Below are positions 7,645 through 52,402 of a stretch of 64,000 nucleotides of DNA, in pieces. The stretch is from assembly GCA_963819095.1 (NCBI GenBank), contig CAWFUO010000012.1, forward strand, positions 145,701-209,700, read 5' to 3'. The notes below the pieces were generated by a model, which saw only the letters and a program-made list of their open reading frames with translations, was not told the origin of the DNA and ran no database searches. The position numbers were made by a program, and so were the translations under genes. The number at the start of each line of letters is the position of its first letter. The stretch's first letter is position 1. Source of the DNA: Candidatus Dormiibacterota bacterium. GTDB lineage: Bacteria; Chloroflexota; Dormibacteria; Aeolococcales; Aeolococcaceae.

Positions 7645-8923
7645 GTGGTGCGGACGGTGATGCACCGCTCGCGTCGCGCCGTCGTCGTCGTGGGCACGCT
7701 GATCGCGCTGCTCTCCCCTGTCGCCGCTGACGCCGCGAGCGGCGGCGATGGGACCCAGCCGGGCCCGTCGAGCCAGGGCACCGGGGCGGTGACCCACGGC
7801 AAGCTCGTCGCGGGTGCCGGCGGTACGTACTTCCCGATCGTTCCCGTCAACATCACGCCTGGCGGCGCGGACGCGCGCAATCCCCTCGATATTCCGCCGG
7901 CCGGACCCGATCCCCAGGGCATGATCTGCCCTGCGTCGCATCGGTTTCACGTCGGTCCCGGATCACCGTCACCAGGGGGCGGCATCGTCTCGGCGACGTC
8001 CATCCTCCCGACCTTCACGAGGAACGCGGTGGGTGGCTACGACGGCGCTGACCCCAGGTTCGCCTATGCGGTGGCAGGAGCGATCCCGGCGGGCGGTGAT
8101 GCCGCGGACACTTCGCCCGGGAGCCTTGCCACCGCGGCGAATGTGGCCGGGCACATCGTCGCTGTGACGGCCTTCCTGCTCACCCGCGGCACATGGGTGG
8201 ACGCGCAACCCACAGCGCCATTCGGCGGGAGCTGCCAGGGTGCGCTCTTCTCATTCAGCGTCCCATACCTCGCCGGGGATGTACCCGCACCGGAGCCTCC
8301 GGTCAGCGTGGTGACCACCCCGCCATTTCCCGTCGGCGCCGACCTCATGACAGCGTTGACCAGAACGTGGACCGTCGGGAGTGTCGCGACGATCCCCGGC
8401 GACATCGCCGACGTCACGCACCTGGGTGCACGTCCCCACATGCGCGTGGACCGACTCGTCGGTGCCGGTCGCACCCGATCCTTATCACGCGCTCACCACG
8501 ACGACGGTGAGCGGCTACACGCTCTTTCTTCTCTACGACGTCACCGTCACCCCTGGCACCGTCGCCTGGAGTTGGGGAGACGGCACCACAACTTCGGCTC
8601 CGAGCCCGGTGGAGCACGGACCGGCAACGCTGCCGTCATACGATCCATCGACGCAGCGGTGGACCGATCCCTGCGCGGTGAGCCACGAGTACGCGGCGGT
8701 TTCGGCGGGCGCCACGATCACGGCCACGGAGACGTTCACCATCACGATCACGGTGAGCTGGAGCGACGGAGTCACGACCCATACCGAACCGGTGGCGTGC
8801 GACCGTGCGACCGGCGGCGCATGCCGGATCACGCTCGGTCCGAACAACGGATGGCGGAGCGGTCCGCATCCGGTGGACCAGATCGAACCGGTGCCGTATC
8901 AGCCCCCGTCGCCAACGCCGTAG
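7645..8923 (+). CDS. secreted hypothetical protein with signal peptide; frameshift near 8400-8470
   Basis: N-terminal MHRSRRAVVVVGTLIALLSPVAADAASG signal peptide. Continues in ORF 8381..8923 with a Thr-rich beta-strand-like segment (TITATETFTITITVSW). The rest of the 823-aa track ORF is antisense to gpmI. Confidence 0.45.
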
Positions 8924-19988: not shown

Positions 19989-25375
<5,387 letters not shown>

Positions 25376-25999
25376 GCCATGACCACGCCGTTCTGCGCCG
25401 CTGTCGCCATCGCGACGTAGTCGCCCTGGCAGTACCCGCGGTCATCCCAGACGGTGCGCTTGAAGGACGCCACCCAGTTGGTGGGCACGGCGATGATCTC
25501 CGCGCCGGCGAGCGCGAGCGCACGGGCGGGCTCGGGGAACCAGAGGTCGAAGCAGATGATCATGCCGACCCGCCCGAAGGGCAGGTCGACGATGGGCAGC
25601 TCGTCGCCCGGCTGGAACCAGGATTGCTCGTCGTAGTAGAGGTGCAGCTTGCGGTACGTCGCCATGCGACCCGATGCGCCGATGAGCACCGCGCTGTTGT
25701 GCCTGCAGTCGCGGTCGAGCTCGCTGATGCCGGCGACGATGTGACAGCCATGCGTGGCGCACACCTCGCGGAGCGCGCGGACGGTGGGCCCGTCGTCCGG
25801 GTCCTCAGCAGCGCGCTGCGCCTCGGCCTCGTCATCGAAGACATAGCCGCTCGACGCCAGCTCCGGAAGCACGATCAGGTTCGCTCCCTTGCTCGCCGCC
25901 GCCGACGCCCAGAGCACCGCCTGCGAACGGTTCTCCTCGAGCTCACCGACATGCGGCTCGTACTGGGCGACAGCGATGCGGACGGGGCGGCTCACACCC

Positions 26000-27136
26000 T
26001 CACGGTAGCGCAGCAGACGTGTCCCCAGGATGGCGCGGAATGCCCTCCGAGACGCCGCAGAGAATCTCGTGCGGCAGGGTGCCGGTGAGGTCCCCGACCT
26101 CGTCCGCGCCGATGCGCACCCCGTCGTGCTCGCCGATGAACATGACGGTGTCGCCGGGCTCGACACGGTCCAGGTCGGAGACGTCGACGCCGACCTGGTC
26201 CATGCTCACGATGCCGGCAATCGGGCAGCGCCGCCCGCGAATCGCCATGTGCCCGCGGTTGGAGAGCGCGCGCGGCAGACCCTGCCCGTAGCCGATGGTG
26301 GCGGTAGCGATCCGGCGCGAGGTTTCGGCGCGCCACGTGCGCCCGTAGCCGACGCTCTCACCGCGCGCGACCGTGCGCACCTGGGCCACCCGGCAGAAGA
26401 CGTTCATCGCGTGCCGCAGCGACGCGGGAGCGGGCACCGGCGGGTAGCCGTAGAACGCGATCCCGGCGCGCACGAGGTCGTGGTGCATCGCGGGATGGGC
26501 CAGGATCGCGGCGCTCCCCGACGTGTGCAGGATCGCGTCCGGCGCAACGGGCCGGAGGGCCTCGACCGCCTCGAGGAAACGGGCGTGCTGGGTGACGGTG
26601 AAACCGATGTCCGCGGCCGCGTCCGCGAAATGCGTGAAGAGCCCTGCCACCTCGATGCGATCCCCCGCGTCGCGCACCGCGTCGACGAGCGAGTCCACCG
26701 TCTCCGGCAGGGCCCCGAGCCGGTGCAGACCGGTGTCGATCTTGAGATGGACGCGTGGGCGGCGCCCGGCCGCGGCTGCCGCCACCGCACGGATCCCATC
26801 AGCATCGAGAACGCTGATGTCGACCCCTGCCGCGACCAGGTCATCGAGTGTCGCGGGCGGGCTCCAGCCGACAACGAGCACCCGCGCGTCGAACCCCGCG
26901 GCCCGCAACCCGAGCGCCTCCTGTGGCGTGTACACGCCGAGCCACGTCGCGCCGCCCGCCAACCCAGCTCGCGCTGCGATGGCCATGCCGTGCCCATAGC
27001 CGTTGGACTTGACCATGGCCATGACCTGCGCCGGCCTGACGAGGGTGGCGATGATCTCGGCGTTCCTCGACAGCGCGGCCACGTCGACCTCAACCCATCG
27101 AAGCTCCGTCGCTCGTTCCCGGCCCTCAGCGCCCAT
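26000..27136 (-). CDS. alr: alanine racemase
   Basis: VKSNGYGHG PLP-lysine motif. 378 aa intact. Confidence 0.9.
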   Translation of the reverse strand: MGAEGRERATELRWVEVDVAALSRNAEIIATLVRPAQVMAMVKSNGYGHGMAIAARAGLAGGATWLGVYTPQEALGLRAAGFDARVLVVGWSPPATLDDLVAAGVDISVLDADGIRAVAAAAAGRRPRVHLKIDTGLHRLGALPETVDSLVDAVRDAGDRIEVAGLFTHFADAAADIGFTVTQHARFLEAVEALRPVAPDAILHTSGSAAILAHPAMHHDLVRAGIAFYGYPPVPAPASLRHAMNVFCRVAQVRTVARGESVGYGRTWRAETSRRIATATIGYGQGLPRALSNRGHMAIRGRRCPIAGIVSMDQVGVDVSDLDRVEPGDTVMFIGEHDGVRIGADEVGDLTGTLPHEILCGVSEGIPRHPGDTSAALP

Positions 27137-29831
27137 CGGACGCAGCGCCCTTCAGTTCAGGACGCGTCCCGACGGGGACAGCCTCGGGAGCCGGCGCCGC
27201 GACGTCCGCCGGGGCGACCCGGCGGACCAGGCCGAAGGGGGTCTGCTCGTCCGACTGGCCGAGCGGGTTATCGGCAATCATGGCCAGAACGGACTCGGCG
27301 TCGATTCCTACCGACGCGAACACCTCGGCCGCCATGTCGTTGGCGTCGATGATCGCGACGCCGACACGGCGTCCCGTACGCCGGCGCAGGTCGGCGGCGA
27401 TGCGCAGCGCCGCACCCGGCGCATCCTCCGGTGATTTGGTCGCCCACCTGTCGTAGGGCGGAAGGTTCAGCGACGAGGGGCCGTCGATCGCGTTGACCCC
27501 ATGCCCCGCCACACGATAGAAGACGCCGCGCATGCCCAGCGGCTTGGTGACCGCGGCCGCGGCGGCAGCCAGCAGGATCCGCCCGGCACCAGCCTCGTCG
27601 ATGGCCAGTTGCATCGTGGTCGGATGGGCGAGACCGACACCGGTCGGCTCGTGGCTCACATAGCGTGAGAGCACGCGCGCCGTCCTCGACACCGCGATCT
27701 CGTCGATGGGGAACGAGCGACCCTGGCTGATGGCCAGTGCCTTCTCGCTGACCAGCAGGACATCGCCGTCCTCGACGGTGATCTCGTTGGGCAGGCGTTC
27801 GAGGCTGGCGCCGATCGCCTCGAGCAGATCGTCGCCCGGCTTGATGAGCGTCGATCGCAGCGGGAACCGCGCCCAGATCCGTCCCCTGTCCTCGAGGAAC
27901 AGGTGCCGGCCCCAGTTGAGGTGCGCGCCGTCGAGGAGCGCGTCGCCGTTGGCGATCTTCTTCGCCGCCGCGCGATCGCCACGGCGGACGAAGCCGCCCT
28001 CGTAGCTGTGCTCGTCGAGCGCGCGCGTCTTGCCGTCGATGTAGACACGCAGCCACACCTCCGCGTTGACGGCGCGCCAGAAGAACATCGACTCCTCGAC
28101 CTCACCGGCGCACGCTCGCCGGAAATTCTCCGCGACCGCCGCGGCTTTCCAGTACGGACGGGCGCGAAACGACGGTGAGCGCATCAGGCTCTGCAGCACC
28201 GCGCGCTGCCGCCGGTACCAGCGGAACTCCGGAGTGGTGAATCCGATCTTCTTGCGCCGCGCCTCGACCTTGCGCGGCAGCACACCATGCAATGCCTGGC
28301 GCACGATGGCGCGTGTCCACCCGTTGTGGATGATCGCGGTTCGCGGCAGCGTGAGGATGTAGTCCACCAGCTCCTGGTCGAGGTAGGGCAGGCGGGCCTC
28401 GAGCGAATGCGCCATCGAGGCGCGATCCTCATAGCGCAACAGCGGGGGCAGGCTGTAGGTGCGGAAGTCCTGGAGCAGGCGGCGCTTGAGGTCGTCGGCC
28501 ACGCGGTCGTCATGCGGCGCCCTGCGCCCTCGCGTGAATGACGGCGAGAGCATCCCCGCGACGTCGACCCGCTGACCGCGCTCACGCAGACGCCGGCGCA
28601 CCAGCGGGGTGACGATGTCGCGGAGCAACCATGCCTCACGCGCGAACTCCGCATATCTGCGTTCACGGAGGAGTTGACGAAGCAGCACATACGGGTAGTG
28701 GTCATATCCCGCCAGCAGCTCGTCACCGGCCTGACCGTCGAGCGTGACCGTGACCTGCCGCCTGGCAAGGCGCATCACCATCCACATCGCGAACGGCGCC
28801 GACGACACCATCGGCTCCTCCATGTACCAGACCCACGCTTCGAGCTCGCGGATGAAGTCCTGGTCGGTGGGCTGCACCTGGCTGTTGTCGGCGCCGGTCA
28901 CCTTGAGCACGCTGTCGATGTAGGTGCTCTCGTCGATGCGGTCACCGGGGAACACCGCCGAGAACGTCTTCAGGCGGTCGCCGAGCGACTCGGTGTCGCG
29001 AACATGGTCGTGCAGCTGCTGCGCCATCACCGTGCAGATGGACGATGAGTTGAGTCCGCCGCTCAGGCAGATGCCGACCGGGACGTCGGCGACGAGCCGG
29101 CGCTGCACCGCGCGCTCGAACACGGCACGGAATGCCTCAGGGCTCGCATCGCCGTCCTCCGAGAGCTGCGGCGTCCAGTACGTCGACTCGGCGATCGTGC
29201 TGCCCTCGATGACGGCGAATGCTGCGGCAGGAACCTGGCGGATGCCGCGAAAGAACGTGCCGTCGTTGTGGTCGAAGAGGCCGAAGCGAAGGTATTCGTA
29301 CATCTGCTGCTCATCGACCTCGCGCGGGAACGTCTCGTCCTGGAGGATCGCCTTGATCTCCGAGGCAAAGACGACGCGCCCGCGGTGGCGCGCGTAGAAC
29401 AGCGGCTTGATGCCGAAGTGGTCGCGCGCCAGCACGAGCCGCGGCGTCGTGCTGCGCTCGTCGAGAATCGCGAGCCCCCACATGCCGTTGAAGCGGCGGA
29501 AGCAGTCGGTTCCCCACTCCGCGTACGCGTGCAGCACCACCTCGGTGTCGCACGCCGTCTGGAACGTGTGTCCCAATGCCTCGAGCTCGACTCGCAGCTC
29601 GCGAAAGTTGTAGACCTCGCCGTTGTAGACGATCTGGAGCCGGCCATCGTCCATCGACATCGGCTGCGCACCGTGCTCGAGATCGATGATGCTGAGGCGC
29701 CGGAACCCGAGCGACGCGGTGGCATCCTCGAAGTGACCGTCATCGTCCGGACCGCGATGCCGGAGCGAGATGGTCATCAGCTCGAGCAAGGCGCGGTCCG
29801 GCGGACCCCAGAAACCGGCTATCCCGCACAC
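27126..29831 (-). CDS. asparagine synthetase (glutamine-hydrolysing) fused to a C-terminal CofE-like (F420-0:gamma-glutamyl ligase-like) domain, 901 aa
   Basis: N-terminal MCGIAG Ntn-amidotransferase and SGGLNSS PP-loop synthetase domains (~620 aa). A ~280-aa C-terminal extension follows, with GDVLLVSEKALAISQGR and IIDANDMAAEVFASVG resembling the CofE fold. Confidence 0.8.
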   Translation of the reverse strand: MCGIAGFWGPPDRALLELMTISLRHRGPDDDGHFEDATASLGFRRLSIIDLEHGAQPMSMDDGRLQIVYNGEVYNFRELRVELEALGHTFQTACDTEVVLHAYAEWGTDCFRRFNGMWGLAILDERSTTPRLVLARDHFGIKPLFYARHRGRVVFASEIKAILQDETFPREVDEQQMYEYLRFGLFDHNDGTFFRGIRQVPAAAFAVIEGSTIAESTYWTPQLSEDGDASPEAFRAVFERAVQRRLVADVPVGICLSGGLNSSSICTVMAQQLHDHVRDTESLGDRLKTFSAVFPGDRIDESTYIDSVLKVTGADNSQVQPTDQDFIRELEAWVWYMEEPMVSSAPFAMWMVMRLARRQVTVTLDGQAGDELLAGYDHYPYVLLRQLLRERRYAEFAREAWLLRDIVTPLVRRRLRERGQRVDVAGMLSPSFTRGRRAPHDDRVADDLKRRLLQDFRTYSLPPLLRYEDRASMAHSLEARLPYLDQELVDYILTLPRTAIIHNGWTRAIVRQALHGVLPRKVEARRKKIGFTTPEFRWYRRQRAVLQSLMRSPSFRARPYWKAAAVAENFRRACAGEVEESMFFWRAVNAEVWLRVYIDGKTRALDEHSYEGGFVRRGDRAAAKKIANGDALLDGAHLNWGRHLFLEDRGRIWARFPLRSTLIKPGDDLLEAIGASLERLPNEITVEDGDVLLVSEKALAISQGRSFPIDEIAVSRTARVLSRYVSHEPTGVGLAHPTTMQLAIDEAGAGRILLAAAAAAVTKPLGMRGVFYRVAGHGVNAIDGPSSLNLPPYDRWATKSPEDAPGAALRIAADLRRRTGRRVGVAIIDANDMAAEVFASVGIDAESVLAMIADNPLGQSDEQTPFGLVRRVAPADVAAPAPEAVPVGTRPELKGAASDGR

Positions 29832-41252: not shown

Positions 41253-42341
41253 TTGACATGGAGCCGGAAGGTGGCCCTGACAGCGGCAGGCGTCATCACC
41301 CTTCTGGCCACCGGACTCGGAGCGATCCCGAACAGTCAGGCCAACGGTGCGCAGGCACCGAACTCTGCGATCGCAGCGCTGCAGCAGCGGCGCGCGCAAC
41401 TCATCGCAGAGCTCGCGGCACTGCAGCCGAGCCTCCAGGCAGCGGGTGGCTCCGTCAATTCGGCGGAAGCGTTGTTCAACGCCCAGCAAACCAAGGTGTT
41501 AAACGAACGCAAGCAGCTCGCCAAGCTCAACGCGCAGTTGCTTTCCCTGAGCAGCCAGCTCAACAGCAATGACGCCACCGCCGCAACCGACAAGGCGCAG
41601 CTCGCCGGCATCACGCGCGCAACGTACGAGACGAGCGCCAACAATCAGGTGCTCGCCGCGGTGTTGAGCGCGAAGTCCTTTAACTCGGCGATCGATGAGT
41701 TGAAGGCGGCCAACCAGGTGTCGCAGCAGGTGCTCAACCTCGTCGAGCGTCTGGCAGCCGCGAACCACGCGATCGTCGCGGAGCAGCTATCGATCCGCGG
41801 CGACGCAGCGTCAGCGCAGGTCCTTGAGGGACAGCTCGCCGCGCAAAGCGATCAGTTCCTCGTGGTGCTCGAGAACCGCAACACCACGTTCGCCGGGCTC
41901 AAGGGACCGGCGCGCACGCTCGCCGGCGACATCGCCAACATCGACAACCAGATCGCGTATCTCGAGGCCGGCCCGCGCGTCGGCGGCTCCGGGTCATGCG
42001 GCAACCATTTCGCATACGGCTTCTGCACGTACTACGTCGCAACTCGCCGATGCGTCCCGTGGCTCGGCAACGCCAACGGCTGGTACAGCGCGGCGGCGGC
42101 GATGGGATACAAGGAAGGTCACATGCCGCTAGCCGGCGCGATCGTGGTGTTCTGGCCGGGCGTCGACGGCGTGAGCCGCGAAGGCCACGTCGCCTATGTC
42201 GAGGCGGTCGGGCCGGCTCCGGGAATCCCCGCGGGGGACTTCAAGCTCTCGGAGATGAACTTCGCCGGGTGGAACCGCGTCGACTACCGCGTCATCAGCG
42301 ACACGAGCGGCGACATCGAGGGATTCATCTACGGGCAGTAG
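41253..42341 (+). CDS. secreted peptidoglycan hydrolase: N-terminal coiled-coil + C-terminal CHAP domain (PcsB/RipA-like architecture)
   Basis: Signal peptide. ~230 aa of Ala/Gln/Leu-rich heptad-like sequence. CGNHFAYGFCTYYV...H CHAP Cys/His motif. Confidence 0.8.
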   Translation: MTWSRKVALTAAGVITLLATGLGAIPNSQANGAQAPNSAIAALQQRRAQLIAELAALQPSLQAAGGSVNSAEALFNAQQTKVLNERKQLAKLNAQLLSLSSQLNSNDATAATDKAQLAGITRATYETSANNQVLAAVLSAKSFNSAIDELKAANQVSQQVLNLVERLAAANHAIVAEQLSIRGDAASAQVLEGQLAAQSDQFLVVLENRNTTFAGLKGPARTLAGDIANIDNQIAYLEAGPRVGGSGSCGNHFAYGFCTYYVATRRCVPWLGNANGWYSAAAAMGYKEGHMPLAGAIVVFWPGVDGVSREGHVAYVEAVGPAPGIPAGDFKLSEMNFAGWNRVDYRVISDTSGDIEGFIYGQ

Positions 42342-43569
42342 CCGTCTCGAGCGCCTGCCTGAGGAGCTCCTGAGCCGCCGGTAGCGAGTCGATCACGTCG
42401 GAGGCGAGCGCGCCCGCCCGTCCGCGACGAGCCTGGACCATCAGCCCCGCCTGTGCATGCACGGTCACCCCGGCGATGGCGGCCTCCCGCGCACCGAGCC
42501 CCTGCGCGAGCATCGAGCCGATCAACCCGGCGAGAACGTCGCCGGTTCCGCCGGTCGCCAGCGCCACGACCCGGTGCGTGTCGATGTGCGCCGGGCTCCC
42601 CGATGCCGCCACCACCGTCTCGGCGCCCTTGAGGACGACGACGACATCGTGCTGCTGCGCGTAGCGCTCCGCGGTGCCGATCCGGTCCGCCTGGACGGTC
42701 TTCGTGTCCGTGCCCGCAAGCCGGGCCATCTCGGTCGGATGCGGGGTGACCACGATCGGCTGCCCGCCGCGCTTGAGATCGAACCCTGACGTCGCGACGA
42801 TGTTGAGCGCGTCGGCGTCGACGACCGCCGGGCACGGCAACCCGACCAGGAGCTCGAGGAGCGCGCTCACCGTCTCCGGCGCGCGACCCAGCCCGGGCCC
42901 GATCACCAGCGCGTCAGCGCCGCCCAGCCGCTCGCGAATCACGGCGACGGCGTCCGGATGCAGGACGCCGGTGCCCGCATCGGGCAGCGGCGTCGGCATC
43001 ACCTCGAGACACCCGACGGCGACGATCGGATGGATCGCCTCGGGCACGCACACCTCAACCAGGCCGGCACCGCCGCGCGCGGCACCCATCGCAGCGAGCC
43101 GCGGCGCGCCGGTGAACCCGCGCGATCCCGCCACCACGACCACCCGTCCGAACGTGCCCTTGTGTCCGTCCTCGGGACGCTCGGCGAGCACCAGGTCCGC
43201 GGGCGGGACCGGCAGCTCGCGCCGCCGGCCACCGACGCGGTTCACCGCGACCGCGATTGCCAGACCGCCATCGTGCGTCAGCGACAGGGCGATATCGGTC
43301 GGCTCGCCGCGCACGTGCACCTGGGGTGGACCACCACGGCGGCGGACCACCTCGATCTCCTTGTACGCCGGCATCCGTTCGCCCATCGAACCGTAGAGCT
43401 TCTTGACCGCCTCCTTGGCGGCCCACCTGCTCGCCCATCGCTCGGGCTTGGCGGCGGCGTACCGCTGCTCACCGTCGGTGTAGATGCGCTGGGCAAATCG
43501 CGGGTGGCGCTGCAGCGCGGCCGCGATGCGATCCACCACGGTCACATCGACCCCGACCACCATCGTCAT
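42325..43569 (-). CDS. fusion protein: holo-ACP synthase (4-prime-phosphopantetheinyl transferase) + ADP-dependent NAD(P)H-hydrate dehydratase (YjeF_C)
   Basis: N-terminal ~115 aa match AcpS (VGVDVTVVDRI...WAAKEAVKKL). Remainder GHKGTFGRVVVVAGS... matches the YjeF C-terminal carbohydrate-kinase-like domain. Confidence 0.75.
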   Translation of the reverse strand: MTMVVGVDVTVVDRIAAALQRHPRFAQRIYTDGEQRYAAAKPERWASRWAAKEAVKKLYGSMGERMPAYKEIEVVRRRGGPPQVHVRGEPTDIALSLTHDGGLAIAVAVNRVGGRRRELPVPPADLVLAERPEDGHKGTFGRVVVVAGSRGFTGAPRLAAMGAARGGAGLVEVCVPEAIHPIVAVGCLEVMPTPLPDAGTGVLHPDAVAVIRERLGGADALVIGPGLGRAPETVSALLELLVGLPCPAVVDADALNIVATSGFDLKRGGQPIVVTPHPTEMARLAGTDTKTVQADRIGTAERYAQQHDVVVVLKGAETVVAASGSPAHIDTHRVVALATGGTGDVLAGLIGSMLAQGLGAREAAIAGVTVHAQAGLMVQARRGRAGALASDVIDSLPAAQELLRQALETATARR

Positions 43570-43576
43570 CCGACGA

Positions 43577-45409
43577 CTATTCCACAGTCACCGACTTGGC
43601 GAGGTTGCGCGGCTGATCGACATCGCAGCCGCGCTGCACGGCCACGTGATACGCGAACAGCTGCAGGGGCACGACGTTGATCAGCGGCGAGAGCACCTCC
43701 GAGCACGCGGGCACCGGAACCGTCGAGGCGAAGCCGGCGTCGAACGGATCCTCGCCCTCGGTGATGAGCGCGATCACCGGCGCGTCGCGCGAATGCACCT
43801 CCTGCACGTTGCTCACCATCTTGGGGAGCGTCGCAGAGCGTGTCGCGATGGCGATCACCGGCACCTCGGGCTCGAGCAGTGCGATCGGACCGTGCTTGAG
43901 CTCGCCGGCCGCGTATCCCTCGGCGTGCACGTACGAGATCTCCTTGAGCTTGAGCGCTCCTTCCATCGCGATCGGGAAGTTGATGCCCCTGCCGATGTAC
44001 AGCGCGCTCTGCGCATGCGCGAAACGCTGACCGATTTCGACGAGCATCGGCTCCAGCTCGAGCGTCCGCGTGAGCAGGTCGGGGAGCTGCTGCATCTCCG
44101 CCACCAGGCGCTGATGCTCGGCAACATCCAGCGTCCCGCGCGCATCGCCAAGCCGGAGCGCGAGCAGGAGGCCGCACACCATCTGGGTCATGAACGTCTT
44201 GGTGCCGGCGACCGAGATCTCCGGGCCCGCCTGCATGTACAGCGAGCCGTCCGCCTCCAGTGACAGCGCACTCCCGACGACATTCGTGATCGCAATCACC
44301 TGCGCACCGGCTGCGTGCGCCTGACGCACCGCGGCGAGCGTATCGGCGGTCTCACCCGACTGCGACACGGCGATGACCAGCGAGTGCTCATCGACGAGCG
44401 CCTCACCGTAGCGGAACTCGCTCGCCGCCTCCACCTTGCATCGAACCTTGGCGAGATGCTCGATCGCATAGCCGGCAACCATCGCCGCATACCACGCCGA
44501 TCCGCACGCCACCAGCACCACCTCGTGCACCCCGGCGAGTGTCTCCTCGCTCATCCCGAGCTCGGGCAGCGACACCATGCCGAGCTCGTCGATCCGTCCG
44601 CGCAGCGCATGGCGGACGGCCTCCGGCTGCTCATGGATCTCCTTGAGGAGAAAGTGCGGAAAGCCGTTCTTCTGCGCCTGCTCCGCCTCCCAGTCGACCG
44701 TTACGATGCGCGCCTCGACAACGGTTCCGTCGAGCTGCTGCACCGTGATCCCGTCCGGCGTTGCGGTCACGATCTCGCCTTCCCCGATCAGCGCGATCCG
44801 CTTGGTATATGGGATCAACGCGGTGATGTCGCTGCTCACGAACACCTCGCCGCGTCCCAGCCCCACCACCAGCGGTGCGTTCATGCGCGCACCGACGACG
44901 CGGTCCGGTTGATCGGCGGAGATGACCACCAGTGCGCACGCACCCTGCATGCGATTCAGCGCGCTGCGCACCGCCGCGGCGAGGTCACCGTGAAACGCAT
45001 CCTCGATGAGGTGCGGCACCACCTCGGTGTCGGTCTCGCTGAGGAACTCGTGTCCGCGCGACATCAGCTCGGCGCGCAGCTCGCGATAGTTCTCGACGAT
45101 GCCGTTGTGAATGACGTGAATGCGCCCCGTGCAATCCTGGTGCGGATGCGCGTTTTCGAGCGAGGGACGCCCGTGCGTCGCCCAACGCGTATGGCCGATT
45201 CCGACCGTTCCCGCCGGCGTGCCTTCGGCGTCCACCTGGCGGGCGAGGTCAGCGACCTTGTGGGTGTTCTTGACGGTGGCGACATCGCCGTCCGGGTCGA
45301 TGATCGCGATCCCGGCCGAGTCGTAGCCCCGGTACTCGAGACGCATCAGGCTGTCGAGCAGGATCGGTGCTGCTGGACGGGGGCCGGTGTAGCCGATGAT
45401 GCCGCACAT
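43577..45409 (-). CDS. glmS: glutamine--fructose-6-phosphate aminotransferase
   Basis: MCGIIGY N-terminus, two SIS domains, C-terminal ...KSVTVE. 610 aa intact. Confidence 0.95.
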   Translation of the reverse strand: MCGIIGYTGPRPAAPILLDSLMRLEYRGYDSAGIAIIDPDGDVATVKNTHKVADLARQVDAEGTPAGTVGIGHTRWATHGRPSLENAHPHQDCTGRIHVIHNGIVENYRELRAELMSRGHEFLSETDTEVVPHLIEDAFHGDLAAAVRSALNRMQGACALVVISADQPDRVVGARMNAPLVVGLGRGEVFVSSDITALIPYTKRIALIGEGEIVTATPDGITVQQLDGTVVEARIVTVDWEAEQAQKNGFPHFLLKEIHEQPEAVRHALRGRIDELGMVSLPELGMSEETLAGVHEVVLVACGSAWYAAMVAGYAIEHLAKVRCKVEAASEFRYGEALVDEHSLVIAVSQSGETADTLAAVRQAHAAGAQVIAITNVVGSALSLEADGSLYMQAGPEISVAGTKTFMTQMVCGLLLALRLGDARGTLDVAEHQRLVAEMQQLPDLLTRTLELEPMLVEIGQRFAHAQSALYIGRGINFPIAMEGALKLKEISYVHAEGYAAGELKHGPIALLEPEVPVIAIATRSATLPKMVSNVQEVHSRDAPVIALITEGEDPFDAGFASTVPVPACSEVLSPLINVVPLQLFAYHVAVQRGCDVDQPRNLAKSVTVE

Positions 45410-45443
45410 AGGACCTCTCTGGAACGGACGTGGAGGGAAGGGG

Positions 45444-46431
45444 TTACGTGCCGGGCGTGGGGGTGGGTGTCGGGGCCGGCGTGGGTGACGGCGGCGGCGT
45501 GGGGATCGTGCCCATCTCGATCTCGACCGACACCTGTTTCACCGAGAGGGTGATGCCCGCCGGGGCGATGATGTCGACGGTTTGCGTGAAGTCGCCGGTG
45601 ATGCCGCCGAGCGGGATCGCCACGGTGCTGAGATTCAGGAATGAGTTGAGCAGGTCCTGTGGCCCGGTCGCGACGACGCTGAACGGTGTGACGATGATCC
45701 CGATCAGGTAGTGACCCTGGGATGGGTTGCCGACGATCCGCGGCGCAATCGCAACGCGTGCGTGTGGTCACGACCGCGGTGATCGAGATGCTGATGCTCA
45801 CATCGCTGGGTTTGGCACTGACGTTGTTGAGCCGCTGGTTGTCGTTTCCATACACGAGGACGGGGACCTGCTCCTGGAAATTCGCCTTCTGATTGCTCAG
45901 GTTGACCGACGCACGCGCCTGGATGTTGGCGAGCTCGTGCGCGGGTCCGTCGACCACCACGGTGGACGGGGCAGCCTGCTGCGAGACGATGTCGTAGCCC
46001 GCCGGCGGAGGATTGGTGATCGTGATCGTCACCGGGATCGACTTGGACGTGAACGCATCCAGGTCGACCTGGACCGATGACGGCCGATCGATGATCTCGA
46101 TGTTGGGATCCGTGCTCGTGATCGTCATCGGGATGGAATACGTTCCGGCGCGATTCACCGCCGCCCAGTCCACGTTGACCGTGAACACGGTGGGGTTGAG
46201 CGTGCTCAGCGTGTTCTGGTCGCCTCCGACACGAACCAGGACGTTGCTCACCGGGTGGACGAGCACATATCCGGAGGGCACGTTCGCTGCGCTCTGCGGC
46301 ACCGCGAGCGACACCAGCCTGGTCTCGGGCGGATTGCCCGCATACACAACCCCGACCCACGTCACGAACGCGATGAAGAAGCACAGCACCTTGAGCTTCC
46401 AGTTGCGGCGGATGAAACCTGGGATTCTCAT
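45444..46431 (-). CDS. cdaR: CdaR (YbbR-repeat regulator of diadenylate cyclase), single frameshift near 45750-45770
   Basis: N-terminal TM + YbbR repeats in ORF 45346..46431. After a 1-nt shift the third frame gives ...IVGNPSQGHYLIGIIVTPFSVVATGP...VKQVSVEIEMGTIPTPPPSPTPAPTPTPTPGT*. Confidence 0.7.
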
Positions 46432-50992: not shown

Positions 50993-52297
50993 TCAGTCGC
51001 CGACCACGCCGGTGAGGTCGCGCACCTCGGTGCCGGGTTCGTCGGTGACGAGTCGTTCGATATCCGCGCCGAGCCCGGCGAGCTTGGTCTCGAGGTCGTC
51101 GTACCCGCGTTCGAGGTGGAAGACGCGGTCGAGCTCGGTGGTCCCGTTGGCGCACAGTCCCGCGATGACGAGTGCCGCGCCGCTGCGAATGTCCGGGATG
51201 CTCATGCGCGTGCCGTGCAGCCGGGCCGGTCCGTTGATGACCGCGCTGCGTCCGTCGATCGCGATGTGCGCGCCCATCTTCTGCAGGAACTCGACGTGGC
51301 GAAATCGGTTCTCGTACAAAGCTTCGCTGATCACGCTCGTGCCCGTCGCCTGGGTCATGAGCGCGCAGAACTGCGGTTGCATGTCGGTGGCAAACCCGGG
51401 GTGCGGCCACGTGGTCATGTCGACGGCGCGCAGGTGCGAGCACGTCACACGCACGTGGTTCGCGCCCTCGACGATGTCGCACCCCGCCGAGCGGAGCTTG
51501 CTGAACAGCCAGCGCAGGTCACTCGGTCGCATGTGCTCGACAACGACATCGCCGTACGTCGCCGCCGCCGCGATCATGTACGTGCCGGCCTCGATGTAGT
51601 CGGCGGTGATGTTGTGCGTCGTGCCATGCAGCAGGCCACCGCTGCCTTCGATGACGATCAGCTCGGTGCCAACGCCGGTGATGTGCGCACCCATGCCGAT
51701 GAGGCAGCGCGCCAGGTCGTAGACGTGGGGCTCGCGGGCGGCGTTGCTGATGACGGTGATGCCCTCCGCGAGCACCGCCGCCATCATCAGGTTCTCGGTT
51801 CCCGTGACCGTGGGCATGTCGAGCGCGATGCGCGCACCGTGCAGGCGACGCGCCCGCGCCACGTACCCGCCCTCTCGCTCCTCCACCTCGGCGCCCATGA
51901 GGCGCAGGCCCTCCAGGTGCTGCTCGACGCGGCGCATGCCGATGTCATCACCGCCGGGCTTGGCGATGCTCGCCTCACCGGCCCGCGCCACCAGCGCGCC
52001 GAGGAGCAGGAACGAGCCGCGCATCCGCCCGCTCAGGGTGGGGTCCACCTCGGTGGTTCGCAGCTCGGCGGCGTGGAGCCGCCAGGTGTTGGTGTCGGGG
52101 TGCTCGACCTTGACGCCCACGTGCTCGAGCATCGACGCCATCGTGGAGATGTCCTCGATATCCGGGACGTTGCCCAGCTCGACCTCCTGGTCGGTGAGCA
52201 GTGCCGCAGCCATCACCGGCAGCGATGCGTTCTTGCTCCCGGAGGTCGCGACGTGTCCTTCGAGCCGGCGTCCGCCACGGATACGGAGGAGTTCCAT
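50993..52297 (-). CDS. murA: UDP-N-acetylglucosamine 1-carboxyvinyltransferase
   Basis: 434 aa. LRIRGG..L.G.V..SGSKNA N-terminus. Confidence 0.9.
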
Positions 52298-52402
52298 CTC
52301 CGCTTACCGTACTCGACGGCGGCCGCTCACCGGGCAGTTGCCGACCGGGTAGATTAGAGAGTGGCAGTCCAGTCGGATCGCCGGCATATATCGGAGACGC
52401 CC

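Follow-up and report, generated by a model that had tools for sequence, protein, structure and literature searches.

The window analyzed here, a stretch of 64,000 nucleotides from a Candidatus Dormiibacterota bacterium (contig CAWFUO010000012.1, positions 145,701 to 209,700), contains a gene whose product joins two enzyme-like halves in one polypeptide chain. The N-terminal half is related to asparagine synthetase B (AsnB). The C-terminal half is predicted to have the fold of CofE, the F420-0:gamma-glutamyl ligase (PF01996/COG1478), although its sequence places it in a divergent clade and not among the orthologs of CofE. We favor the reading that the fusion is a bifunctional enzyme that would tailor peptidoglycan or lipid II precursors by ligating and amidating them, and put its probability at about 0.5. 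The observed part of this reading consists of the domain composition, the fold, the conservation of the fusion and the enrichment of certain genes in its neighborhoods. An earlier note, made from the letters of this DNA and its open reading frames (ORFs), had drawn attention to an intact ORF of 901 residues, and translation of the window gives exactly the same coordinates on the minus strand. Related loci are cited below by L numbers and related proteins by P numbers. The parts of the gene are as follows.

27126..29831, minus strand: the whole fusion gene, 901 residues plus stop codon (27126-27128), GTG start; also a single ORF in L006-L036 and other loci
29232..29831, minus strand: N-terminal class II (Ntn) glutaminase domain, residues 1-200 (Pfam GATase_7/GATase_6)
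29826-29828, minus strand: nucleophile Cys2 of the glutaminase domain; the translation starts M-C-G-I-A-G-F
28047..29132, minus strand: AsnB-type synthetase domain (PP-loop, adenylating), residues 234-595 (Pfam Asn_synthase, 1e-73; TIGR01536, 447 bits)
29043-29063, minus strand: PP-loop SGGLNSS of the AsnB half, residues 257-263
28719-28736, minus strand: GQAGDE motif; Gln367 stands where asparagine synthetases have the catalytic Glu (aligned with human ASNS and with TsnB9; conservation)
28422-28442, minus strand: LLRYEDR motif of the AsnB half (alignment to human ASNS)
27912..28046, minus strand: linker, residues 596-640, with a conserved 'GD' and the start of an 'N-x-G-R-H-L' motif (alignment)
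27192..27911, minus strand: domain of predicted CofE fold, assigned to a distinct non-F420 clade, residues ~641-880 (Pfam PF01996, AlphaFold2, Foldseek, hhalign)
27717-27749, minus strand: SEKALAISQGR, residues 695-705, in the CofE-like half
27588-27641, minus strand: GVGLAHPTTMQLAIDEAG motif in the CofE-like half
27477-27521, minus strand: FYRVAGHGVNAIDGP motif in the CofE-like half
27336-27353, minus strand: IIDAND, residues 827-832, in the CofE-like half
27237-27272, minus strand: DNPLGQSDEQTP motif in the CofE-like half
27129..27191, minus strand: Ala/Pro-rich C-terminal tail, residues 881-901, poorly conserved (alignment; pLDDT 51-60 at the end of the model)

A Pfam scan of the protein places GATase_7 at residues 44-164 and Asn_synthase at residues 234-595. 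The F420_ligase family PF01996 matches residues 658-836 with an E value of 6.4e-16; its 59 bits exceed the gathering score of 25, and the match covers positions 2-155 of the 218 positions of the profile. A motif related to that of the linker, 'PN-x-G-K', is found in the alignment near the N terminus of standalone homologs of the C-terminal domain.

The fold of the C-terminal half was examined with an AlphaFold2 model built on 46 sequences, which has a predicted local distance difference test score (pLDDT) of 88.7 and a predicted template modeling score (pTM) of 0.84. In a Foldseek search of the Protein Data Bank (PDB) the model matches significantly only the structures of A. fulgidus CofE (2PHN, 2G9I and 7ULD, E ~1e-10), the next match having an E value of 0.3. 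The alignments to CofE extend over ~250 columns, with template modeling (TM) scores of 0.54-0.62 and ~21% identity. For comparison at the sequence level, a canonical CofE was rebuilt from a frameshifted contig and then used to gather true CofE sequences. The program hhalign aligned the clade to this canonical set with a probability of 96.5% and E = 1e-9, over 136 columns in the N-terminal two-thirds only. Searches of the PDB gave E = 2e-4 for the CofE match with phmmer and E = 3e-3 for PDB CofE with the clade profile, and a hidden Markov model of the clade aligned only ~55 N-terminal residues with a single CofE sequence. The similarity of the C-terminal region to CofE, which the earlier note had drawn from motifs, is thus significant in profile searches (PF01996 and hhalign), and both motifs that it had quoted, SEKALAISQGR and IIDAND, are present.

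The same note was right about the superfamily, as PF01996, hhalign and Foldseek agree, but a true CofE the domain is not. The CofE equivalog model TIGR01916 gives 26.8 bits against a cut-off of 180.65; two other such models, NF009809 and NF009810, give 22.1 bits against 274 and 15 against 304. Among 46 sequences that differ down to 43% identity, 37 columns of the CofE-like half are invariant, and these include E696, Q703, D783, D829, N831, D832, D854, N855 and Q859. The clade has motifs of its own, namely SEKxxAIxQGR, GIGLGxPxTMQLAIxEAG, FYRxAGxxxxAIDGP, LPPYN, IIDANDxG and DNPLGQxxEQTP. The identities of the metal and nucleotide ligands of CofE are in part those that we take to be given by Nocek et al. 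2007. Of these, CofE D150 aligns with D829, the Asp of IIDAND, so that this position is conserved, whereas Ala stands at the place of CofE T151; in the regions of the remaining ligands the alignment is unreliable. Furthermore, G153-R154-C155 of CofE aligns with D832-M833-A834 (D-M-A). In CofE the G153-C155 segment faces the isoalloxazine ring of F420, and R234 and F92 stack (PMC10861534). The C-terminal 'DWRG..D..G..L..T..ADE' segment of CofE and the R234 region found no aligned counterpart in the sequence comparisons.

When 1.84 billion representative proteins were searched, the clade profile matched 363 clusters (50% identity) at E <= 1e-30 and 1485 at E <= 1e-3, whereas canonical CofE accounts for at least 8000 clusters among the matches listed at E <= 1e-10. 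These counts argue for a discrete, medium-sized family apart from CofE at large. Its standalone members, which are 229-266 residues long, come from many Patescibacteria and from WOR-3, Armatimonadota, Thermotogota, Bacillota and Chloroflexia. The genome of the saccharibacterium Southlakia epibionticum has a MurJ (SEML1_0728) and no PF01996 protein, so that the Tn-seq tables of this species are uninformative about the clade.

The AsnB half scores 447 bits with the family model TIGR01536 (asn_synth_AEB), over its cut-off of 267, but only 262.9 bits with the AsnB equivalog NF006949, under a cut-off of 499. Its nearest relative of known structure is the hydroxyamidotransferase TsnB9 (7YLZ, 5.6e-61 over residues 1-596), with E. 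coli AsnB (1CT9, 5.9e-36) well behind, and human ASNS likewise. The N-terminal Cys is present in 22 of 23 aligned homologs, the exception being a truncated ORF (L071). The differences from asparagine synthetases are concentrated in the synthetase site. The segment S362-G-E364-G-S-D367-E368 of human ASNS aligns with D-G-Q367-A-G-D-E in the window protein, and both this protein and all 45 of the fused or adjacent homologs have GQ(A/G)(G/A)DE. Thus the catalytic Glu of SGEGSDE (E348 in E. coli, E364 in human) is an invariant Gln in the fusion. Known asparagine synthetases share the residue that is Glu-364 in human ASNS, and the human mutants E364A and E364Q are inactive (PMC6748925). The equivalent of human D400 is Pro in the window and Pro, Ser or Ala across the homologs. 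The equivalents of D367/E368, R403 (in LLRYEDR) and K466 are retained, the last as a Lys near the K466 position in the window protein.

The PP-loop of the family reads SGG(L/I)DS. SGGLNSS, with Asn in place of Asp, occurs only in the window and in L008, L017 and L019. The window protein is 93-96% identical to relatives that have the Asp, so the Asn is either tolerated or alters adenylation. Across the family both the nucleophilic Cys and the PP-loop are conserved, which makes the AsnB half look like an active amidotransferase, with a different acceptor site suggested by its sequence. The earlier description of a 'complete AsnB' therefore needs qualification. The domain call is sound, and Cys2 and the PP-loop SGGLNSS are both in the translation, but with the Glu replaced by an invariant Gln and the D400 site lost, the AsnB half is probably not an asparagine synthetase.

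The two halves are joined in many genomes. The alignment of the C-terminal domain was used to scan one genome per GTDB species, which yielded at least 515 stretches with a relative, and the best 80 were fetched. The fusion is a single ORF in dozens of metagenome-assembled genomes (MAGs) of Dormibacterota, Actinomycetota and Chloroflexota, usually ~870-995 residues long and in one case 1091. In the Dormibacterota loci it is one ORF of 890-939 residues within a syntenic block, groES-groEL-fusion-alr-nitrilase-uvrD-ligA. Single-ORF fusions, of 872-1091 residues, are also present in Actinomycetota (L022, L024, L029, L034, L054 and L075, and the Acidimicrobiia L048, L066, L081 and L085) and in Chloroflexota (L031, L033 and L036). 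More than 30 independent MAGs, from differing projects and assemblers, have the ORF in continuous form, with conserved neighbors in Dormibacterota. A missed stop codon at the junction or an assembly artifact, of which the earlier note had warned, is ruled out by these many independent copies, and a decaying pseudo-domain is ruled out by the strong conservation of both halves.

Split gene calls are confined to error-prone, frameshifted long-read contigs such as L001 and L010. In L001 (6404-8831) frameshifts divide the fusion into an 'asparagine synthase' and an 'F420-0:gamma-glutamyl ligase' (P0003, 276 residues). Another gene call, P0034 (438 residues, PF01168+PF01996), apparently joins the end of the CofE-like domain to alr. 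Genuine separate genes are found in the Thermoleophilia locus L078 and in the WWE3 (Patescibacteria) locus L071, where the two halves overlap by 4 nucleotides (TTGA and ATGA, respectively); in L078 the second gene has its own Shine-Dalgarno sequence. Domains that are fused in some lineages and translationally coupled in others can be expected to work together, and this pattern is classical evidence for functional coupling of the AsnB half and the CofE-like half. In public databases such fusion proteins are annotated as 'asparagine synthase' or 'asparagine synthase-related protein'. The literature search found no paper on this fusion architecture or on the CofE-like clade, in agreement with the earlier impression that the architecture is undescribed. 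Both halves belong to known superfamilies; what is new is a CofE-fold clade, so far uncharacterized, together with its partner and its cell-envelope setting.

The genes surrounding the clade provide the main clue to its function. For an unbiased count, the loci were dereplicated to 43 synteny groups, of which three that were rRNA-embedded were dropped. In the remaining 40 the two nearest ORFs on each side, 150 in total, were scanned against Pfam. The most common neighbors are MurJ and Wzy_C (four each) and penicillin-binding protein (PBP) transpeptidases (three, two of them with a transglycosylase domain). Luciferase-like monooxygenase (LLM), alanine racemase, seryl-tRNA synthetase and GNAT genes were counted three times each, and YkuD twice; glycosyltransferase family 2 genes lie near the target in two groups. 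MurJ is directly downstream on the same strand in the Patescibacteria loci L049, L057, L060, L062 and L076, which are from Saccharibacteria and Staskawiczbacteria. The fusion is directly followed by a class A PBP in L033 and L061 and immediately preceded by an L,D-transpeptidase YkuD in L034. In L078 the order is SepF ... asnB-like, cofE-like, DivIVA. L056 has a LysM-M23 gene upstream, and in L077 an upstream Wzy_C gene runs into the start of the target. The window, the Dormibacterota loci and the Actinomycetota loci L022, L024 and L029 have the alanine racemase gene alr downstream.

The CofE-like domain has other partners besides AsnB. Four 50% clusters (P0364, P0382, P0383 and P0385) contain fusions of Amidase_3, a MurNAc-L-Ala amidase, to a CofE-like domain of a sister subclade with the motifs IVDVNDLG and SNPLGNDDQQTP (L088, 7001-10246; also L089 and L090). 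By inspection, none of the four has an obvious N-terminal signal peptide. The P0385 locus, on a contig from a biogas fermenter, reads recN, Amidase_3 fusion, then a MurJ/SpoVB-like flippase. Further architectures, a few of which may merely be artifacts of gene calling, are CofE-like+GNAT (in Patescibacteria followed by murJ), CofE-like+M20 peptidase, PlsY+CofE-like, CofE-like+adenylate kinase and HD+CofE-like. Their loci and proteins are L049 597-1739, L060 2135-3286 and L076 7986-9203, and P0246, P0256, P0265, P0266 and P0245. Overall, the clade is repeatedly and independently linked to genes of peptidoglycan and lipid II metabolism.

In some Chloroflexia MAGs the standalone CofE-like gene lies inside an rRNA operon (L002, 6110-12626; also L003/L045 and L064). 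The order in L002 is 16S, tRNA-Ile(GAT), CofE-like ORF (8001-8783), tRNA-Ala(TGC), 23S, 5S, and it is uncommon for a protein gene to lie between the two spacer tRNAs. rRNA genes are also found within a few kilobases of the standalone gene in L044, L058, L059 and L063. This placement may reflect expression coupled to growth rate or a link to translation.

The favored reading can be put in the form of a mechanism, in which the substrate, the chemistry assigned to the CofE-like half and the step order are drawn by analogy with related enzymes. The Ntn glutaminase would free ammonia from glutamine, and the PP-loop domain would adenylate an acceptor carboxylate, probably not that of free aspartate, which would then be amidated. 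The CofE-like half (~240 residues) would use a nucleoside triphosphate (NTP) to activate a carboxylate and form an amide bond with an amino group, as CofE does. Both halves would act on one cell-envelope precursor at the cytoplasmic face of the membrane, before MurJ flips the precursor. The best candidate for the substrate is the stem peptide of peptidoglycan, carried on lipid II or as UDP-MurNAc-peptide. One half might add an amino-acid substituent or branch to a carboxylate or amino group of the stem peptide, and the other might amidate the carboxylate that remains free. Gly-NH2 and D-Ala-NH2 on the alpha-carboxyl of D-Glu, and branches of the iso-Asn/Gln type, belong to classical wall chemistry. 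With D-Ala supplied by the alr product, a substituent of the D-Ala-amide type is conceivable, an idea behind which that classical chemistry reportedly stands. We know of no enzymes assigned to these wall modifications.

A broader proposal is that the clade forms a class, so far unrecognized, of ligases that join amino acids to peptidoglycan or lipid II and that stand apart from Mur ligases, ATP-grasp ligases and Fem transferases. Together with AsnB it would provide the stem peptide with an amidated amino-acid substituent such as those just named, and on its own it would tailor the walls of Patescibacteria and other Terrabacteria widely. This proposal is tentative, and we consider it rather doubtful.

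Amidation of peptidoglycan by AsnB paralogs has precedents. LtsA (PMC7920481) and AsnB (PMC8554201, PMC5485061) amidate meso-diaminopimelate (mDAP) on lipid intermediates, and AsnH amidates the D-Asp bridge (PMC3885529). All of these proteins act on peptidoglycan carboxylates, LtsA on lipid intermediates (PMC7920481, PMC8554201, PMC3885529). LtsA, AsnB1/AsnB and AsnH resemble the AsnB half of the fusion in their N-terminal Cys, their annotation as asparagine synthetases and their linkage to cell-wall genes (PMC7920481, PMC8554201, PMC3885529). Unlike the fusion, they have no described CofE-like domain. The mDAP amidotransferases have an extra loop at the substrate site and have lost the Asp-binding D/R residues (PMC8554201); of the Asp-pocket residues D400 and R403 (human numbering) the fusion has lost the D400 equivalent but retains that of R403. 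TsnB9 is an AsnB paralog with an acceptor other than aspartate, as is proposed for the AsnB half, but it belongs to secondary metabolism, has no CofE-like domain and retains the Glu (SGEAADE).

The logic proposed for the fusion, activation or ligation of a carboxylate combined with glutamine-derived amidation on peptidoglycan precursors, is also that of AslA, an ATP-grasp D-aspartate ligase, with AsnH, and of MurT/GatD (PMC3885529, PMC3266927). The closest functional parallel to the proposed activity is AslA/AsnH, which makes the lactococcal D-iso-asparagine bridge; MurT/GatD amidates the D-iGlu of lipid II. The folds are different, being ATP-grasp or Mur ligase plus class I GATase in these systems and a CofE fold plus an AsnB-type domain in the fusion, and the known systems consist of separate proteins whereas the fusion is one polypeptide. 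On the CofE side, the fold and the motifs S-x-K...(E/Q)-G-R, P-x-D-P and the Asp of I-x-D (CofE D150) are common to CofE, FbiB's N-terminal domain and the CofE-like half. By analogy, this half probably carries out CofE-type chemistry, that is, NTP-dependent amide formation via an acyl phosphate (PMC10861534). CofE and the clade differ in having only ~21% identity, in the invariant motifs particular to the clade, in the altered F420-facing segment and in a C-terminal third that cannot be aligned, as well as in taxonomic range, gene neighbors and fusion partners.

Several observations weigh against the envelope-precursor reading. The alignment with CofE at the sequence level covers the N-terminal two-thirds only, and ligand equivalence is set only for D829 and CofE D150, which makes the ligase activity an assumption. 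The PP-loop of the window protein has Asn in place of Asp, which could weaken adenylation. The neighborhoods are heterogeneous and many neighbors are of the housekeeping kind (groEL, aminoacyl-tRNA synthetases, LepA, rRNA). Moreover, the Wzy_C neighbors fit another lipid-linked glycan equally well, and the GNAT neighbors and fusions, together with a 327-bit match to the amidotransferase of N-acetylglutaminylglutamine amide (NAGGN) synthesis, also fit a soluble small-peptide product.

The first of these products, a lipid-linked envelope glycan whose uronic-acid carboxylates, for example, are amidated or linked to amino acids, is unlikely, yet it is the least improbable of the alternatives. Four synteny groups have genes of the Wzy_C/O-antigen ligase type next to the target, two have glycosyltransferase family 2 genes there, and the second-best NCBIfam model for the protein is the XrtA/PEP-CTERM exopolysaccharide amidotransferase TIGR03108. 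Its 366 bits are far under the cut-off of 816.9, however, and the alr, PBP, YkuD, M23 and DivIVA neighbors and the Amidase_3 fusions are specific to peptidoglycan. We give slightly less credit still to a genuine asparagine synthetase, converting Asp, Gln and ATP to Asn, with an accessory or regulatory CofE-like domain. Such an enzyme would explain the TIGR01536 score and the retention of Cys2, the family motif of the PP-loop and the D367/E368, R403 and K466 equivalents, but not the NF006949 score, the Gln in all 45 homologs at a position where the human E364Q mutant is inactive (PMC6748925), the Pro, Ser or Ala at the D400 site, or the greater proximity to TsnB9 than to 1CT9. Nor would it account for a CofE-like partner that is also standalone or fused to cell-wall enzymes. 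A soluble peptide amide similar to the osmolyte NAGGN, in which GNAT would acetylate, the CofE-like ligase would join two amino acids and AsnB would amidate, is quite unlikely. These three activities mirror the Ngg/AsnO pathway, a GNAT gene is directly upstream in several Dormibacteria loci, and CofE-like+GNAT fusions occur in Patescibacteria. Against it, the NAGGN amidotransferase model TIGR03104 stays under its cut-off of 570, the window has no GNAT gene adjoining the fusion (the closest one, next to tsaD, is at a distance of 5 kb), and the links to MurJ, PBP and amidase would be left unexplained.

The remaining alternatives concern cofactors, which the earlier note had listed, with peptides and cell-wall precursors, as targets of a two-step tailoring reaction. 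The cell-wall option fits the gene context, and the cofactor option, F420 in particular, has the least support of the three. That the CofE-like half is a glutamate ligase for folate or dihydropteroate of the FolC2 type, or glutamylates some other cofactor, is very unlikely. Chlamydia CT611/FolC2, a COG1478 member, replaces FolC (PMC1971073, PMC4161248), which means that the superfamily has already been recruited outside F420 metabolism once; like the clade as proposed here, FolC2 has a substrate other than F420 (PMC1971073). However, FolC2 sits within a folate operon (PMC4161248), unlike any of the loci studied. No folate gene was found among the 150 neighbors of the 40 synteny groups, and folate metabolism offers no reason for a fusion to AsnB or MurNAc-L-Ala amidase. 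Least probable of all is glutamylation of F420-0 by the CofE-like domain with amidation of the tail by the AsnB domain. It draws on the PF01996 match and the CofE fold, and on LLM oxidoreductase genes near some of the fusions: a divergent one (TIGR03841, 281 bits, over the cut-off) just upstream in one Actinomycetota lineage (L054, L075 and L085; e.g. L085 3424-4383) and a second one two genes downstream in L036. The LLM oxidoreductase is the sole F420-related neighbor seen among the loci examined, and its presence is probably due to chance because such genes are numerous in these phyla. The low TIGR01916 and NF009809 scores, the D-M-A in the ring-facing segment, the CofE C-terminal segment that lacks an aligned counterpart and the cluster counts (1485 versus at least 8000) all speak against F420, as do the many standalone members in Patescibacteria. 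To our knowledge, Patescibacteria have no F420 biosynthesis. Genes cofC, cofD and fbiC/cofGH were absent from every neighborhood examined and from the 64-kb window, and the window contains no canonical CofE or LLM gene.

The fusion gene was said in the earlier note to be directly upstream of alr, and the two genes indeed overlap by 11 nucleotides, which makes it probable that they are co-transcribed and translationally coupled. The two genes that follow the fusion are:

26003-27136, minus strand: alr, alanine racemase (Pfam Ala_racemase_N/C), overlapping the end of the fusion gene by 11 nucleotides
25123..26166, minus strand: carbon-nitrogen hydrolase (nitrilase-superfamily amidase), downstream of alr and syntenic in Dormibacterota

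The hydrolase is under all NCBIfam equivalog cut-offs, the top model being a nitrilase with 180 bits against 500. An amidase next to an amidotransferase gene might be a functional pair or a coincidence. The order on the minus strand is iron-dependent repressor (DtxR/IdeR-type), FTR1, groES, groEL, fusion, alr, carbon-nitrogen hydrolase, pcrA/uvrD with an intein, and ligA. The interval between groEL and the fusion contains neither a convincing terminator nor a convincing sigma-70-like promoter, and an Rfam scan of the window gave no match. The G+C content of the window is ~69% and its nearest relatives are Candidatus Dormibacterota MAGs.

The intein of the PcrA/UvrD helicase (22037-25375, minus strand, 1113 residues) lies between the helicase domains (Hint/Intein_splicing, residues ~342-630). 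Related helicases are either ~1100 residues long (e.g. L025, L031 and L032) or ~735 (L018, L027 and L040), which indicates that the intein is present in some Dormibacterota lineages and not in others. Elsewhere in the window, glmS (43580-45538, minus strand) overlaps by 8 nucleotides a fused gene for holo-ACP synthase and NAD(P)H-hydrate dehydratase (ACPS + Carb_kinase, 42328-43587), and a gene of the EPSP-synthase/MurA family is at 50996-52303. The window is part of a housekeeping supercluster that includes glmS, alr, tsaD and groES/groEL.

For this clade the labels 'asparagine synthase' and 'F420-0:gamma-glutamyl ligase' are probably both wrong. Such mislabels seed false inferences about F420 metabolism in Patescibacteria, Dormibacterota and other groups, and the split or joined gene calls of long-read contigs propagate misleading annotations. 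Modifications of peptidoglycan precursors control cross-linking, susceptibility to lysozyme and antibiotics, and immune recognition. Experiments could start, concretely and at low cost, from the fusion, from the split pairs and from the amidase fusions. Should the cell-wall reading prove true, the clade would represent a new type of enzyme for the modification of peptidoglycan precursors, with at least 363 clusters (50% identity) in many uncultivated phyla.

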